Sequence record: OR352939.1
DNA: 64,000 bases
Source: Escherichia phage AV109
Strand: one strand, 5' to 3'
The position numbers and the translations under genes were made by a program. Below, in pieces: positions 8,753 through 50,184 of the stretch (its first letter is position 1; every line of letters starts with the position of its first letter). Below the pieces are notes generated by a model that was not told the origin of the DNA, searched no databases, and saw only the letters and a list, made by a program, of their open reading frames with translations.

Positions 8753-10321
8753 ATGACTACTATCAAAACTAAAGCTCAGCTCGTAGACAAATGGAAAGAA
8801 CTGCTGGAAGGTGAAGGCCTGCCGGAAATCGCTAATAGCAAGCAGGCTATTATCGCTAAAATCTTCGAAAACCAGGAAAAAGATTTCGAAGTATCCCCTG
8901 AATATAAAGACGAGAAAATCGCTCAGGCATTTGGTTCTTTCTTGACCGAAGCTGAAATTGGTGGTGACCACGGTTATAATGCTCAGAACATCGCAGCGGG
9001 TCAAACCTCTGGTGCAGTAACCCAAATTGGGCCGGCAGTTATGGGTATGGTTCGTCGTGCTATTCCTAATCTGATCGCTTTTGATATTTGTGGTGTTCAG
9101 CCTATGAACAGCCCGACCGGTCAGGTATTTGCTCTCCGTGCAGTATATGGTAAAGACCCTATCGCTGCTGGCGCTAAAGAAGCTTTCCATCCGATGTATG
9201 CCCCGGACGCGATGTTCTCTGGTCAGGGTGCTGCTAAGAAATTCCCAGCTCTGGCTGCTGACACTACTACTGTTGTAGGTGATATCTATACTCACTTCTT
9301 CCAAGAAACTGGTACTGTATATCTGCAAGCTTCTGCTGTCGTAACACTTGATTCTGGTGCAACTGATGCAGCTAAATTAGATGCAGAAGTTAAGAAACAA
9401 ATGGAAGCTGGTGCACTGGTAGAAATCGCTGAAGGTATGGCTACTTCTATCGCTGAACTCCAGGAAGGTTTCAACGGTTCTACCGATAACCCATGGAATG
9501 AAATGGGCTTCCGTATCGATAAACAAGTTATCGAAGCTAAATCTCGCCAGCTGAAAGCTGCTTACTCTATCGAATTAGCACAAGACCTCCGTGCAGTACA
9601 CGGTATGGATGCTGATGCTGAACTGAGCGGTATTCTGGCTACAGAAATTATGCTAGAAATCAACCGTGAAGTTGTTGATTGGATTAACTACTCAGCACAG
9701 GTTGGTAAATCTGGTATGACCCTGACTCCTGGTTCTAAAGCTGGTGTATTTGACTTCCAGGACCCGATTGATATCCGTGGTGCTCGTTGGGCCGGTGAAA
9801 GCTTTAAATCTCTGTTGTTCCAGATTGATAAAGAAGCAGTTGAAATTGCTCGTCAAACCGGTCGTGGTGAAGGTAACTTCATTATCGCTTCCCGTAACGT
9901 AGTTAACGTACTGGCTTCAGTTGATACTGGTATTTCTTACGCTGCACAGGGTCTGGCTTCCGGTTTTAATACCGACACTACTAAGTCTGTATTTGCCGGT
10001 GTACTTGGTGGTAAATACCGCGTATACATCGACCAGTATGCTAAACAGGATTATTTCACCGTTGGTTACAAAGGCGCTAACGAAATGGATGCAGGTATTT
10101 ACTATGCTCCTTACGTTGCACTTACCCCACTGCGTGGTTCCGATCCTAAGAACTTCCAGCCGGTAATGGGCTTTAAAACTCGTTACGGTATCGGTGTTAA
10201 CCCGTTTGCTGAAAGTTCCCTGCAGGCTCCAGGTGCTCGCATCCAGTCCGGTATGCCGTCTATCCTGAACAGCCTTGGTAAGAACGCTTACTTTAGACGC
10301 GTCTACGTTAAAGGAATTTAA
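8753..10321 (+). CDS. 23: major capsid protein (T4 gp23-like)
   Basis: 522 aa; near-identical to recalled T4 gp23 across the whole length. Confidence 0.97.
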   Translation: MTTIKTKAQLVDKWKELLEGEGLPEIANSKQAIIAKIFENQEKDFEVSPEYKDEKIAQAFGSFLTEAEIGGDHGYNAQNIAAGQTSGAVTQIGPAVMGMVRRAIPNLIAFDICGVQPMNSPTGQVFALRAVYGKDPIAAGAKEAFHPMYAPDAMFSGQGAAKKFPALAADTTTVVGDIYTHFFQETGTVYLQASAVVTLDSGATDAAKLDAEVKKQMEAGALVEIAEGMATSIAELQEGFNGSTDNPWNEMGFRIDKQVIEAKSRQLKAAYSIELAQDLRAVHGMDADAELSGILATEIMLEINREVVDWINYSAQVGKSGMTLTPGSKAGVFDFQDPIDIRGARWAGESFKSLLFQIDKEAVEIARQTGRGEGNFIIASRNVVNVLASVDTGISYAAQGLASGFNTDTTKSVFAGVLGGKYRVYIDQYAKQDYFTVGYKGANEMDAGIYYAPYVALTPLRGSDPKNFQPVMGFKTRYGIGVNPFAESSLQAPGARIQSGMPSILNSLGKNAYFRRVYVKGI

Positions 10322-10348
10322 TGCTTTAACGTTAAAATACATAACCTT

Positions 10349-10370
10349 ATGGGAGACTCCGGTCTCCCAT
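10349..10370 (+). terminator. rho-independent terminator after gene 23
   Basis: 9-bp stem ATGGGAGAC/GTCTCCCAT with UCCG loop followed by a T-rich run. Confidence 0.6.
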
Positions 10371-10378
10371 TCTTGTTT

Positions 10379-11038
10379 CTATAGCTTAAAACAATCATCG
10401 CGTTCATTAATCCAATTTCTTATAGTTTTTGCGGATACGTTAAAGAATTCGGCAGCGTAATCGTAGTGGTTAAATTCATGGCCTTTAATAGAAATATCCA
10501 CAAATACAAATTTCTTACCTTTATTAGAATTCTTTCTAATTTTTGCTTTATGCTCTTCTGATAGTTTTCTACCTTTAAGATGAGAATCTCTATTTTTATA
10601 AAACTTTTTATTTGCTATAGATTTGTTTTCTCGATGTTCTTTAGATTCTTTAGAACCTAATTTCTTTTTAGATATTTTGGCCCGAACTTCTTCAGTCATA
10701 CCAGCTTTTGTCTTTTCGGATAACATCTCACGATACCCAGGTTCCTGTAAAGCTACTATAACAGGATTACCCTTGCCGCCTAAGGCTGCATTATAAGTAT
10801 CTGTTCTCATGACAAAAGCCTCGTCAACTAGTTCGGCTTCCTTAGCATACATCTCTTCAGATGTTTCGAAATTGAAAAGGATTTCCTTTTTAAAATTCTC
10901 TAAGCCGTATTTCTTTATGGATTTTACTATGTTAACCCCGGAACCCATATAAGAATCGTTAACATCTGTGGTGGCATGGGCTCCAACATAAATCTTGTTA
11001 TTAATGAGATTGGTTATTTTGTAAATTAAATAATTCAT
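10379..11038 (-). CDS. free-standing GIY-YIG homing endonuclease (SegD-like position between genes 23 and 24)
   Basis: N-terminal YKITN...KIYVG GIY-YIG motif, lysine-rich NUMOD-like middle, C-terminal DNA-binding tail. Confidence 0.85.
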   Translation of the reverse strand: MNYLIYKITNLINNKIYVGAHATTDVNDSYMGSGVNIVKSIKKYGLENFKKEILFNFETSEEMYAKEAELVDEAFVMRTDTYNAALGGKGNPVIVALQEPGYREMLSEKTKAGMTEEVRAKISKKKLGSKESKEHRENKSIANKKFYKNRDSHLKGRKLSEEHKAKIRKNSNKGKKFVFVDISIKGHEFNHYDYAAEFFNVSAKTIRNWINERDDCFKL

Positions 11039-11041
11039 ATT

Positions 11042-11308
11042 TTATGCTGCTTTGACACGTCGGTTGATGATATCACGGAAGTCAATACGATTTTCTTGGA
11101 TTTTCAGCCAGTTACCAGATTTGTCTTTGGTATGGGTAGAATATTCACCGTTCCACCAGAAGTCAGTTTCATAAGCCAGGGCTTCGTATTTCTTAACCAA
11201 TGCATTAACTGCATTACCGTTAGGATTGGTACCAAATTTTTCTACCAGAGCTTTGATGTCTTTGTCAAGGTTAGAAAGTGTGGTACGGATAAAGTTTAAT
11301 TTGTTCAT
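11042..11308 (-). CDS. hypothetical protein (88 aa from the SD-preceded ATG)
   Basis: ORF track 11042..11323; start moved to the ATG preceded by GAGGAG; early promoter upstream. Confidence 0.5.
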   Translation of the reverse strand: MNKLNFIRTTLSNLDKDIKALVEKFGTNPNGNAVNALVKKYEALAYETDFWWNGEYSTHTKDKSGNWLKIQENRIDFRDIINRRVKAA

Positions 11309-11337
11309 TTTTAATCTCCTCATGTTTTGATAGGTCT

Positions 11338-11367
11338 ATAGTAACACGACGCTTTTTGTGTGTAAAC
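11338..11367 (-). promoter_or_regulatory. T4-type early promoter (-35 GTTTAC, 18-nt spacer, extended -10 TGnTACTAT)
   Basis: sigma70-like hexamers with T4-early GTTTAC -35; member of a repeated family. Confidence 0.6.
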
Positions 11368-11373
11368 CACTTT

Positions 11374-11381
11374 TATAAATA
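11374..11381 (+). promoter_or_regulatory. T4-type late promoter TATAAATA for gene 24
   Basis: exact TATAAATA 31 nt upstream of the gene 24 ATG. Confidence 0.7.
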
Positions 11382-11411
11382 AAATTATATTCTCAATAAG
11401 GAAAAAATGCA

Positions 11412-12695
11412 ATGAGTAAAATCCAAAAATTATTGCGTGAATCTACAACGTCTACTAGCAACTCAATTGGTCGCCCAAATCTCGTTGCTTTGACTCGCGC
11501 TACGACTAAATTAATATATTCTGACATTGTAGCAACACAAAGAACTAATCAACCTGTTGCTGCTTTTTATGGTATCAAATATCTTAACCCAGATAACGAA
11601 TTCACATTTAAAACCGGTGCTACTTATGCGGGTGAAGTTGGATATGTAGACCGAGAAAAAATTACTGAACTCACAGAAGAATCAAAAGTCACACTAAATA
11701 AAGGTGATTTTTTCAAATATAATAATATCGTCTATAAAGTGTTAGAAGATACACCATTTGCAGATATTCAAGAAAGTGATCTAGAATTAGCTCTTCAGAT
11801 TGCAGTCGTTCATTTAAAGGTACGGTTATTTTCAGATGCAGCGGTAACAAGCAAATTTGAAAGCTCTGGTAGCGAAATTTCTGATGCAAGATTCCAGATT
11901 AATAAATGGCAAACTTCAGTCAAATCTCGTAAACTTAAAACTGGCCTCACGGTTGAATTAGCGCAAGATTTGGAAGCGAATGGATTTGATGCCCCTAACT
12001 TCTTAGAAGATTTGCTTGCTACTGAAATGGCTGATGAAATTAATAAAGATATTCTTCAGTCTTTAATTACTGTATCAAAACGATATAAAGTTACTGGAAT
12101 TACTGACACCGGATTTATTGACTTGAGCTATGCATCCGCTCCAGAAGCAGGTCGTTCATTATATCGAATGGTGTGTGAAATGGTGTCACACATTCAAAAA
12201 GAGTCAACTTATACTGCAACGTTTTGTGTAGCCTCAGCTCGTGCAGCTGCTATTCTTGCTGCTTCTGGTTGGTTAAAACATAAGCCGGAAGATGATAAGT
12301 ATCTTTCACAAAATGCTTATGGATTCTTGGCAAATGGATTACCTCTTTACTGCGATACCAACAGTCCGTTAGATTATGTTATTGTGGGTGTTGTAGAAAA
12401 TATCGGCGAAAAAGAAATTGTAGGGTCCATCTTTTATGCTCCATACACTGAAGGAGTAGATTTAGATGACCCGGAACATGTTGGTGCATTTAAAGTTGTA
12501 GTTGATCCGGAAAGCTTGCAACCGTCTATCGGATTATTGGTTAGATACGCTTTATCAGCAAATCCTTACACAGTAGCAAAAGATGAAAAAGAAGCGAGAA
12601 TAATTGATGGCGGGGACATGGATAAAATGGCAGGACGTTCAGACTTGTCTGTTTTACTCGGTGTTAAATTGCCTAAAATTATTATAGATGAATAA
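11412..12695 (+). CDS. 24: head vertex protein (T4 gp24-like)
   Basis: 427 aa, paralogous in size and position to gp23 as in T4. Confidence 0.93.
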   Translation: MSKIQKLLRESTTSTSNSIGRPNLVALTRATTKLIYSDIVATQRTNQPVAAFYGIKYLNPDNEFTFKTGATYAGEVGYVDREKITELTEESKVTLNKGDFFKYNNIVYKVLEDTPFADIQESDLELALQIAVVHLKVRLFSDAAVTSKFESSGSEISDARFQINKWQTSVKSRKLKTGLTVELAQDLEANGFDAPNFLEDLLATEMADEINKDILQSLITVSKRYKVTGITDTGFIDLSYASAPEAGRSLYRMVCEMVSHIQKESTYTATFCVASARAAAILAASGWLKHKPEDDKYLSQNAYGFLANGLPLYCDTNSPLDYVIVGVVENIGEKEIVGSIFYAPYTEGVDLDDPEHVGAFKVVVDPESLQPSIGLLVRYALSANPYTVAKDEKEARIIDGGDMDKMAGRSDLSVLLGVKLPKIIIDE

Positions 12696-49684: not shown

Positions 49685-50077
49685 CTACTTTTTAAAAGTT
49701 TTTTGCAAAAGTTTGATGATTTCGTCGACGTTGGTTTCATCTACGATACAATGGATTTTTGTTACACCTAAAGTTATACCTTCGTTAGTAGGTTGAGGCT
49801 TTACTAAATCTACTTCAATAAAGTATTTGAACTCGTCAGGATAAATCTCGAAATAAGTTTCAATTTCACCACCGGCAGAACATACAGTACCGTCTTCCAT
49901 AGTTACACTTACTACGTTTGACGTATCGCTATCATAATCAGGTTCCATTCCGTTTACAACAAAACTAGGCCCATGGAGTTCAATCAATTTTAACATCTTA
50001 GCGTTATTGTGTGGTGCTTCTTGAACAAAGTCGTCTTTAAATAAAGGGTTAATGATATAAGATTTTCCGATTTCCAT
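49685..50077 (-). CDS. hypothetical protein (frd.2-like position)
   Basis: 130-aa ORF behind an early promoter and conserved leader. Confidence 0.55.
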   Translation of the reverse strand: MEIGKSYIINPLFKDDFVQEAPHNNAKMLKLIELHGPSFVVNGMEPDYDSDTSNVVSVTMEDGTVCSAGGEIETYFEIYPDEFKYFIEVDLVKPQPTNEGITLGVTKIHCIVDETNVDEIIKLLQKTFKK

Positions 50078-50106
50078 TTTGATTTCCTCATGTTGTTGAT
50101 AGGTCT

Positions 50107-50135
50107 ATACTAACACATCCAGGGAAGAAGTAAAC
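50107..50135 (-). promoter_or_regulatory. T4-type early promoter (-35 GTTTAC, 17-nt spacer, extended -10 TGnTAGTAT)
   Basis: repeat-family promoter downstream of the gene 32 terminator. Confidence 0.55.
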
Positions 50136-50166
50136 AACTTTTTCAGCAATTTACAGATACTCAAAA

Positions 50167-50184
50167 GGGAGACCGAAGTCTCCC
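50167..50184 (-). terminator. terminator hairpin GGGAGAC-CGAA-GTCTCCC after gene 32
   Basis: perfect 7-bp stem, UUCG loop in the mRNA, U4 downstream. Confidence 0.55.

Follow-up and report, generated by a model that had tools for sequence, protein, structure and literature searches.

An earlier note on this DNA pointed to two minus-strand genes inside the plus-strand late operon, between the capsid genes gp23 and gp24: a SegD-like GIY-YIG gene and an 88-aa ORF (here ORF88) with a full early promoter and a conserved leader. It gave segD alone for this position in T4, and suggested that ORF88 may be additional cargo. The question raised by this locus is whether the two genes belong together as one mobile unit or whether ORF88 occupies the gp23-gp24 interval in its own right. 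The window, by which we mean the entire stretch of 64,000 nucleotides that was analysed, is 100% identical to phage AV114 (Mosigvirus; OR352944.1) at the same coordinates, and we refer to AV114 throughout. The AV114 record (OR352944.1) annotates the two genes as 'homing endonuclease (SegD)' and 'hypothetical protein'.

Layout of the gp23-gp24 interval

The ORF listing and the sequence confirmed the placement of both minus-strand genes exactly. They are enclosed by gp23 (8753-10321, plus strand) and gp24 (11412-12695, plus strand, ATG at 11412), and the minus strand of the interval carries an early-type promoter, the 88-aa ORF and a 219-aa GIY-YIG gene. A terminator scan located the gp23 terminator hairpin at 10349-10370 (plus strand; GGGAGACTCCGGTCTCCC at 10351-10368, then TCTTGTTTCT); this UUCG-loop hairpin borders the cassette in every relative examined. 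On the minus strand, it also marks where the ORF88-segD unit ends downstream. ORF88 (11042-11308, minus strand) starts with MNKLNF at a conserved start codon at 11308, within an open frame that runs from 11042 to 11323 (minus strand) in the ORF listing. Its ATG is preceded, at a distance of 7 nt, by the Shine-Dalgarno (SD) sequence GAGGAG (11316-11321, minus strand), which is conserved in relatives, and its stop codon TAA is separated by the 3-nt spacer AAT (11039-11041, minus strand) from the ATG of the segD-family gene (10379-11038, minus strand). The T4-type early (sigma-70) promoter occupies 11338-11367 (minus strand; -35 GTTTAC at 11362-11367, -10 TACTAT at 11338-11343 with an upstream TG) and stands back-to-back with the gp24 late promoter TATAAATA (11374-11381, plus strand).

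A consensus scan of positions 10250-11500 found this early promoter as the sole sigma-70-type site (TTTACA-17-TACTAT with a TG extension, 11366-11338, minus strand), and no promoter of segD's own was found in AV114 in the same scan. The pattern GTTTAC-N16-18-TAYWAT has 8 matches in the window, all on the minus strand, versus 0.32 expected. The string formed by the -10 element, leader and SD, TACTATAGACCTATCAA, occurs a second time with one mismatch at 50096-50112 (minus strand), upstream of another small ORF, and is also conserved in related phages; among six phages the -35 and -10 elements are kept and the spacer is variable. The promoter further fits the PST/T4 consensus of the PeSL (promoter-early stem-loop) cassettes, TTTACW-N17-TAYWAT (PMC4122927), and is followed by GAGGAG and ATG. 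The 88-aa gene has an early-type promoter and a strong SD, in agreement with the earlier note. Host RNA polymerase acting at 11367-11338, together with the strong SD, would drive ORF88, with transcription predicted to start near 11331, and the promoter class suggests that the ORF88-segD unit is expressed early. Since segD lacks its own promoter, it would be transcribed by read-through from the ORF88 promoter.

By sequence comparison, the 219-aa gene is a SegD orthologue, as its initial description as SegD-like had implied. BLASTP found 129 identical residues out of 221 (58%, E 3e-88) with query residues 1-219 aligned to residues 4-222 of T4 SegD, that is, over the full length. The protein matched phrog_314 'homing endonuclease' (5e-54) and exceeded the cutoff of TIGR01453 (group I intron endonuclease; 57.4 bits, cutoff 56.05). 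Its Pfam matches to GIY-YIG, NUMOD3 and HTH were weak, and the scores for GIY-YIG and SegE_GIY-YIG were below gathering. The gene is free-standing rather than within an intron, and among near-identical phages one fixed site is either occupied by it or empty. Even within the allele group of AV114 its C-terminal DNA-binding part is variable, with 65-99% DNA identity.

ORF88 and its family

The product of ORF88 (~10 kDa, basic, pI 9.5) is a member of phrog_6003 (E 1.2e-48, residues 1-88 on profile positions 1-88 of 90), a family that includes RB69ORF188c, JS98 orf173 and VR7ORF190c. The earlier note's caution that it could be a conserved T4 ORF was therefore half right: T4 lacks the ORF, but relatives of T4 conserve it, and their homologues have long been annotated, as hypothetical proteins. 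The homology check that had been suggested for the protein yielded this family match and no Pfam, NCBIfam or PDB sequence-profile match; Foldseek likewise found no analogue of its fold in PDB or BFVD. Family members share 27-97% identity, with K3, F6, N30-G31-N32, A45 and Q71 invariant, and length and reading frame are kept in members down to 27% identity. The AlphaFold2 model, which predicts a helical-hairpin / beta-hairpin / helix architecture, reached a pLDDT of 92 and a pTM of 0.77 from only 18 sequences. Because dN/dS is about 0.1 (~0.09-0.13) and the model is of this quality, we conclude that ORF88 is a real gene.

An exhaustive HMMER search of 1.8 billion representatives returned five ORF88-family clusters. 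The other matches were long multi-stretch or repetitive proteins that we took as spurious (the repetitive P0016 alone was inspected), and the match P0010 is probably the product of a chimeric contig. An IMG/VR scan gave nine loci, nearly all in known isolate genomes, and literature searches with the ORF names of the family and for transcriptome data on T4 segD found nothing. In T4-like phages phrog_6003 lies antisense between gp23 and gp24. Outside these phages the family is found within arrays of small co-directional ORFs, and in Vequintavirinae-like phages its context is other than gp23-gp24. A swapped 16-residue C-terminus of ORF88 in phages without segD was considered and rejected, because direct translation showed identity through residue 86; the confinement of tblastn matches to residues 1-72 in these phages is thus a search artefact. 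ORF88 is probably a dispensable early accessory protein, resident in the gp23-gp24 slot. As for its putative role, the chances seem to us about even that, within minutes of infection, it binds nucleic acid or a host protein, in host take-over or counter-defence.

Slot states, junctions and lateral exchange

The comparison of the 23-24 interval among T4-like phages that the earlier note had recommended revealed four slot states: empty, segD only, ORF only, and ORF with segD. Records of 132 phages, which belong to four genera, have a member of the ORF88 family in the gp23-gp24 interval; 37 of them contain segD and 95 do not. The slot is empty in T2, where the 83 nt comprise the hairpin and the late promoter; for this empty state, 29 of 30 sampled full-coverage rows (>=97% identity) span 482-483 nt. 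The slot holds only segD in T4, which lacks the 88-aa ORF just as the earlier note had indicated, and in Erwinia phage Vettismorki. Only the ORF is present in SQ17, JS98, VR7, JS09, MX01, WG01 and a metagenomic relative, as well as in the Tequatroviruses EP01, W143 and JE01, and segD is likewise missing beside those diverged members that were examined (RB69, VR7 and ABPH49 types). ORF88 is the resident gene of the slot, and segD is a guest. We consider it likely that the gp23-gp24 space is a small slot with interchangeable cassettes, in which AV114 would hold a two-gene minus-strand early operon.

In the phages with both genes, the placement of segD is exact, with the final ORF88 codons on one side and the gp23 terminator hairpin on the other. 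TAA-AAT-ATG(segD) is invariant in the seven segD-containing junctions that were read (7/7), and the 3' end of segD reads ...AAG(C/T)TATAG|AAACAAGAAT-hairpin in AV114, IME08, EcoM_005 and IME341. In 10/10 phages without segD the junction reads GT(T/C)AAGATTG(C/T)(A/G)TA(G/A)|TA(T/C)AGAAACAAGAAT-hairpin, and segD-lacking phages of three genera share a conserved empty-site sequence spanning the junction; the segD-lacking allele at the candidate SegD target junction is GTTAAGATTGCATAG|TATAGAAAC. A table of variable sites in 16 phages showed that ORF nucleotides 258-261 are perfectly, and nucleotide 267 nearly, associated with segD status, and that no site at or before nucleotide 252 is. At least two ORF haplotypes that carry segD are identical to those of neighbours without it (AV114 equals SQ17 over nt 1-248, and IME08 equals JS98 over nt 1-254), and the insertion point is the same on the different haplotypes. 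In the flanks, AV114 and SQ17 share at least 98% identity. These observations are consistent with an insertion of segD precisely between the last ORF88 codons and the UUCG hairpin terminating gp23. The inserted unit would carry its own version of the last three to four codons (ORF nt 255-267; 11042-11054, minus strand), which co-vary with the presence of segD and would constitute its translation-initiation region.

The tail of ORF88 forms an SD before segD in 04086 (GGAG, 6 nt spacing) and UP19 (GAGG, 8 nt spacing), and none was found in the ORF88 tail of AV114 or IME08. In the absence of such a sequence, translation of AV114 segD would most probably occur by termination-reinitiation coupling, and weakly; we give translational coupling of segD to ORF88 about an even chance. 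No RNA hairpin masking the segD start, a feature known from other endonuclease genes of T4, was predicted (MFE -9.1 kcal/mol, z = +0.7). The terminator loop of AV114, CCGGAG in place of CCGAAG, was considered as a segD-linked immunity change and discarded, since IME08, EcoM_005 and IME341 carry segD and the common loop.

The interval is mosaic with respect to its surroundings. Between AV114 and JS09, members of the same genus, dS is 0.05 for gp23 and 0.12 for gp24, whereas the intervening ORFs are only ~31% identical; the ORF88 allele of AV114 is of the JS98 type (93% identical to JS98), not of the RB69 type of its own genus (31% to JS09). Tequatrovirus EP01/W143 and Dhakavirus IME08 share 97-98% identity in the ORF and promoter versus 83% in the 3' part of gp23 and 68% in the 5' part of gp24. 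The 5' half of segD is 93-98% identical across Mosigvirus and Dhakavirus, against 52-87% for the flanks. Between genera, the segD 5' half together with the 3' part of ORF88 shows 95-99% identity against the same 52-87%, and the ORF88 part is likewise conserved in pairs without segD. The two main ORF haplotypes have 20 differences in the upstream 168 nt (12%) versus 1 in the 86 nt of nt 169-254 (Fisher p = 0.003). Crossovers within ~15 nt of the junction had been a candidate finding that was weakened: these haplotypes have no informative sites in nt 169-248, so that crossovers can be placed only within ~90 nt. The whole interval (promoter and ORF88, with or without segD) has probably been swapped between genera by recombination anchored in the conserved 3' end of gp23 and the start of gp24. 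Ordinary T-even recombination, which is very frequent, can also account for the patchy distribution and for the tight linkage of the last codons alone to segD.

Alternative readings and known systems

If ORF88 were extra cargo of a segD mobile element, the two genes should move together. The last 3-4 ORF codons do travel with segD, and, compared with the empty interval of T2, the unit of promoter and ORF is itself inserted and has been swapped between genera. However, the majority of ORF-bearing records (95/132) lack segD, T4 and Vettismorki have segD without the ORF, and ORF nucleotides 1-252 show no association with segD, the ORF bodies next to segD being identical to those of neighbours without it. 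Cargo of segD is thus largely refuted and very improbable, and the proposal survives in a weaker sense, with promoter and ORF88 as an inserted accessory cassette compared with the 83 nt of T2. The same distribution bears on the idea that ORF88 works together with SegD, for instance as its regulator, as an immunity factor or as a gene with the SegD target at its 3' end, its conservation being tied to the endonuclease. The genes are adjacent and probably co-translated, and nt 169-254, which form the 3' third of the ORF, are near-invariant in DNA, as for a recognition region or a repeated co-conversion tract; yet this third is conserved equally between phages without segD, which make up most of the carriers and include the RB69-, VR7- and ABPH49-type members examined, and we regard a partnership as improbable. 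That ORF88 is a chance or non-coding frame, the functional element being an antisense early promoter or transcript between late genes, would agree with the lack of a domain match. It is refuted for practical purposes by the low dN/dS, the retained length and frame, the SD at optimal spacing, the invariant motifs, the confident AlphaFold2 model and the occurrence of the family in a different context in Vequintavirinae-like phages.

The reading of ORF88 as resident and segD as guest leaves two accounts of how the guest arrived. T4 SegD reportedly does not home, and the prototype of the SegD family may not be mobile by homing. AV114 SegD could likewise be a non-homing passenger or a domesticated nuclease, the patchiness being due to general recombination and swapping of whole cassettes. 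The title of Sokolov et al. 2018 on T4 SegD points in this direction. A 2010 review (PMC2988022) found no promoter for T4 segD, expected very low expression and doubted that the gene is expressed. The ORF-only cassette crosses genera without any endonuclease, AV114 segD has no SD, and the crossovers are resolvable to ~90 nt at best. On the other side, the reading frame of segD is intact, with a dN/dS of 0.15 (AV114 vs IME08) that indicates purifying selection, its catalytic half is 97-99% identical across genera with flanks at 52-87%, the insertion point is the same on different ORF haplotypes, and the empty-site junction is conserved in segD-lacking phages of three genera. We regard the passenger account as a serious possibility, if one that falls somewhat short of even. 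That AV114 SegD has kept its homing activity, directed at the junction of the ORF88 tail and the hairpin or a site close by, is a candidate explanation that comes close to an even chance. A more far-reaching version is rather unlikely: AV114 SegD would be an active homing enzyme, unlike that of T4, with a target spanning this junction, repeated homing would have made the 3' third of ORF88 uniform in four genera and brought the JS98-type allele into Mosigvirus, and ORF88 would be a new early host-take-over or counter-defence protein instead of a neutral passenger.

The AV114 gene resembles T4 segD in family, in the layout of N-terminal catalytic and C-terminal NUMOD/HTH parts, in slot and antisense orientation, and in ending directly before the gp23 terminator hairpin. 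Unlike T4 segD, which directly follows an intergenic promoter-like sequence and has GGAG near its start, it comes second in its unit, behind an 88-aa gene whose stop codon it follows at 3 nt, and has no SD. Such an arrangement recalls T4 mobE and similar genes, which have no discernible initiation region and abut or overlap the upstream ORF (PMC2988022); apposition of this type without an initiation region implies dependence on upstream transcription and translation. Among the promoters identified as specific to free-standing endonuclease genes of T4, all belong to the middle or late class and none to the early one (review PMC2988022), whereas the only promoter-like site found for the AV114 unit is of the early class. 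ORF88 agrees with RB69ORF188c, JS98 orf173 and VR7ORF190c in position, orientation and promoter arrangement and differs from them in having segD fused behind it in AV114.

In T4-type phages, the PeSL regulatory cassettes described by Arbiol et al. (2010) and Comeau et al. (2014; PMC4122927) are reported there to occur less often among structural genes. The AV114 locus shares with them the early promoter consensus followed by an SD and start codon, and an ORFan by whose insertion, deletion or replacement close relatives differ, here as four slot states and an allele replacement within Mosigvirus. The near-identical promoter/leader copy at 50074-50112 is preceded by the same hairpin; in this related copy (50074-50184) the hairpin thus stands upstream, as in PeSLs. 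In contrast to PeSLs, the hairpin of the AV114 slot lies downstream of segD, the late promoter and start of gp24 lie upstream of the early promoter, and exchange is bounded by the 3' end of gp23 and the start of gp24 rather than by PeSL repeats.

The locus is real but largely ordinary, as many related phages already have annotations for both genes, and the main gain of the analysis is a clearer annotation, with the 'extra' gene resident in the slot and segD as the guest. The natural series at one locus of the capsid cluster (empty, segD only, ORF only, ORF with segD) could be used to test whether any SegD-family enzyme homes and how a promoter-less endonuclease gene borrows the signals for transcription and translation of its host gene through rewritten last codons, and to probe the role of a widespread 10-kDa early protein that has no known fold relative.

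The ORF88–segD unit

Bases 1-64000 of phage AV114 (OR352944.1, Mosigvirus) are 100% identical to the window, with the same coordinates, and we use that name here. Between gp23 (8753-10321, plus strand) and gp24 (11412-12695, plus strand), the ORF listing gives two minus-strand ORFs: a 219-aa ORF (10379-11038; segD) and ORF88, whose open frame covers 11042-11323 and whose conserved start MNKLNF.. at 11308 yields 88 aa. The ORF88 ATG lies 7 nt downstream of the Shine–Dalgarno (SD) sequence GAGGAG (11316-11321, minus strand), and a sigma-70-type consensus scan of 10250-11500 gave a single match, TTTACA-17-TACTAT with a TG extension (11366-11338, minus strand), back-to-back with the gp24 late promoter TATAAATA (11374-11381, plus strand). 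At its other end the unit is bounded by the terminator hairpin of gp23 (10351-10368). The feature is real, and the two genes and their early promoter are placed as the earlier note had them; its facts stand, and only its reading of ORF88 as cargo is reversed.

The 219-aa protein is 58% identical to T4 SegD over its full length (E 3e-88), matches phrog_314 'homing endonuclease' (5e-54) and scores slightly over the cutoff of TIGR01453, while its Pfam matches (GIY-YIG, NUMOD3, HTH) are all sub-threshold. We regard it as a SegD orthologue, in agreement with the previous description as a SegD-like GIY-YIG gene. Among phages carrying segD, its C-terminal DNA-binding part (segD 3' half, 10379-10708, minus strand) shows 65-99% DNA identity and is far more variable than the catalytic half (93-98%); between AV114 and IME08 it also carries a 4-residue indel. 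Such variability may point to swapping of domains or to tracking of the target.

The window holds eight matches to GTTTAC-N16-18-TAYWAT, all of them minus-strand, compared with an expectation of 0.32; the ORF88 promoter therefore belongs to the early-promoter class of the phage. Since its -10/leader/SD string has a near-unchanged second copy at 50074-50112 (minus strand), the conserved leader noticed earlier is real. This copy is part of a second early promoter (50074-50184, minus strand), GTTTAC-17-TAGTAT followed by agacctatcaacaacatgaggaaatcaaaATG, with -10, leader and SD near-identical to those of ORF88; the hairpin GGGAGACTTCGGTCTCCC directly precedes it, completing a unit like the promoter-early stem-loop cassette (PeSL) of T4-type phages. 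This unit leads into a hypothetical ORF of 130 aa, located on gene 32's frd side. The 18-nt GC hairpin (GGGAGACCGAAGTCTCCC or its UUCG complement) has four copies in the window (~33295, ~50167 and ~59165 on the plus strand, and 10351-10368), and the AV114 copy behind gp23 has a private loop change, CCGGAG, absent from the other segD-carrying phages read there. The ORF88 promoter matches the PeSL consensus TTTACW-N17-TAYWAT plus SD and start (Comeau et al. 2014, PMC4122927); however, the stem-loop lies at the downstream end of the unit, unlike in the full hairpin-plus-promoter twin at 50074-50184, so that the ORF88 locus would be at best a half-PeSL.

Occupancy of the slot and exchange between phages

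The ORF88 family is present in 132 phage records, and AV114-type segD in 37, with ORF88 alongside in every one. ORF88 occupies the slot (the gp23-gp24 interval) without segD in Mosigvirus SQ17 and JS09 (the JS09 annotation names RB69ORF188c as homologue), Dhakavirus JS98, MX01 and WG01, Gaprivervirus VR7, one metagenomic T4-like contig and three Tequatroviruses (EP01, W143 and JE01), whereas segD occurs without ORF88 in T4, as the earlier note had it, and in Erwinia phage Vettismorki. A search with the T4 gp23 end plus gp24 start (sample of 60 rows) indicated that most Tequatroviruses have neither gene: 29 of the 30 full-coverage rows with ≥97% identity were 482-483 nt long, and JE01 was 818 nt. 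The T2 interval (83 nt) contains a UUCG hairpin, TATAAATA, the gp24 SD and nothing else. The slot thus has four states: empty, segD, ORF, and ORF plus segD. Comparison of the interval, which had been proposed as a check, inverts the cargo reading, with ORF88 as resident and segD as guest. ORF88 is not the conserved T4 ORF that the note named as a refutation, but relatives of T4 have long had it in their annotations as a conserved hypothetical gene. Its unit is, relative to the empty slot, an inserted accessory cassette.

Several annotations near the slot also differ. In Vettismorki, whose segD is 70% identical to that of AV114 with only a 30-aa ORF annotated upstream, a DprA-like gene lies between gp24 and rnlB (L004 582-1133). 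Two tandem gp24 paralogues (24a, 24b) are present in Dhakavirus, Gaprivervirus and the metagenomic relative (L006 2624-4118, L007 1-1899, L008 1-1895, L029 1338-3897), and a single gp24 in AV114 and T4. The annotation of JS09 rnlB in two pieces (L009 1-585) suggests a frameshift or sequencing error.

Between AV114 and IME08, which belong to different genera, DNA identity is 65-94% in the gp23 3' region and 52-81% in gp24, compared with 95-99% in the segD 5' half and ORF88 3' part and 69-92% in the segD 3' half (DNA-binding domain). AV114 and JS09, both Mosigvirus, have dS values of 0.05 for gp23 and 0.12 for gp24 and only ~31% identity in ORF88, the replaced segment running from the ~9 last gp23 codons to just before the gp24 SD. 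The EP01 and W143 copies of ORF88 and its promoter share 97-98% identity with those of Dhakavirus, compared with 83% for the gp23 3' end and 68% for the gp24 5' end. These two swaps indicate that the whole cassette crosses genera even without segD, by exchange apparently anchored in the conserved gp23 and gp24 gene ends. The two main ORF88 haplotypes differ at 20/168 sites (12%) in the 5' part and at 1/86 in nt 169-254 (window 11055-11140, minus strand; Fisher p = 0.003), in pairs with and without segD alike. Possible explanations for this stretch are nucleotide-level constraint, a co-conversion tract of some age and a conserved region recognised by an endonuclease; the few differences in it limit crossover placement to ~90 nt.

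The segD junction and possible homing

Junctions were read on the coding strand at seven occupied sites (ORF88 tail followed by segD) and ten empty ones (tail alone). Occupied sites read ...GT(C/T)AAAG(C/T)(A/G)G..TAA-AAT-ATGAATTATTTAATTTA..., with the segD 3' end (printed for AV114, IME08, EcoM_005 and IME341) as ...AAG(C/T)TATAG|AAACAAGAAT-hairpin; empty sites read ...GT(T/C)AAGATTG(C/T)(A/G)TA(G/A)|TA(T/C)AGAAACAAGAAT-hairpin. In the variable-site table of 16 phages, segD status was matched perfectly by nt 258-261 of ORF88 and almost perfectly by nt 267, and no site at nt ≤252 was associated with it; the ORF88 bodies of AV114 and mobillu equal that of SQ17 exactly, and that of IME08 equals JS98. 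The ORF88 stop is always 3 nt from the segD ATG. The tail reads GCAGC(A/G)TAA (..VKAA) in AV114 and IME08, without SD, GCGGAGTAA (..VKAE) in 04086, with GGAG 6 nt upstream of the segD ATG, and GTAGAGGCCTAA (..VKVEA) in UP19, with GAGG 8 nt upstream. From these sequences we conclude that the last few ORF88 codons also act as the region where segD translation is initiated, and that they are part of the inserted unit.

No promoter-like site of segD itself was found in the sigma-70-type scan of 10250-11500, and no RNA structure was predicted at the ORF88–segD junction. Transcription of AV114 segD would start at the early promoter of ORF88, and its translation is probably coupled to that of ORF88. 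For T4 segD, by contrast, a 2010 review (PMC2988022) recognised no promoter, listed the target as unknown, placed the ribosome-binding site 2 nt from the AUG and expected very low expression. AV114 segD may home. In favor are an ORF that is intact and subject to purifying selection, the catalytic half near-identical across genera, the insertion point fixed on different ORF88 haplotypes and the conserved empty site, whereas the title of Sokolov et al. (Virology 2018;515:215) points against it.

Properties and possible role of ORF88

The ORF88 protein matches phrog_6003, of unknown function, along its full length (1.2e-48); the homology check suggested earlier thus placed it in a family, but Pfam, NCBIfam and PDB provided no function. 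It had zero matches in Pfam or NCBIfam, and its profile matched no PDB sequence. An AlphaFold2 model from an 18-sequence alignment (pLDDT 92, pTM 0.77; 75 pLDDT in a poorer first model) comprises helices 3-25, 31-47 and 77-87 and a beta-hairpin (52-61 and 67-71), with the invariant N-G-N loop joining helices 1 and 2. Neither model matched a PDB structure with E <0.6, and among BFVD folds the sole match was a member of the same family from an Acinetobacter phage. When 1.8 billion representatives were searched exhaustively with HMMER, only five family clusters emerged; the other matches, to long multi-stretch or repetitive proteins, we take to be spurious. A word-indexed search with the family profile found 22 proteins, all similar-sized phage or metagenome ORFs. 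One 160-aa predicted protein, P0010 (ENA contig, 701 nt), joins a 34-residue ORF88 fragment to unrelated sequence and is probably a chimeric assembly product.

That ORF88 is a non-gene is scarcely credible: dN/dS is 0.09-0.13 between close alleles, length is conserved at 27-97% identity, K3, F6, N30-G31-N32, A45 and Q71 are invariant, the pI is 9.5-9.6 (basic in 4/4 diverged members tested) and the model is confident, on which grounds we consider it a real gene. A partnership with SegD, beside which it stands in AV114 and without which it occurs in several genera, is improbable. The role ranked highest, to which we give about an even chance, is that of an accessory early protein binding a host protein or nucleic acid in take-over or counter-defence. 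This guess is constrained by the early-class promoter, the strong SD, a product described as small, basic and soluble, the confidently predicted fold with its N-G-N loop and no PDB analogue, the replacement of alleles and lateral transfer, and the distribution. The genomes examined from Mosigvirus, Dhakavirus and Gaprivervirus all keep ORF88; its absence from T4 and T2 makes it dispensable at the level of the subfamily; and in Vequintavirinae-like phages it lies among small ORFs that form long arrays running in one direction. In the AV114 slot, a free-standing endonuclease gene of the SegD family has thus been inserted after a conserved ORFan, within an early cassette that can be swapped; the parts are of already known kinds, in a slightly new arrangement.
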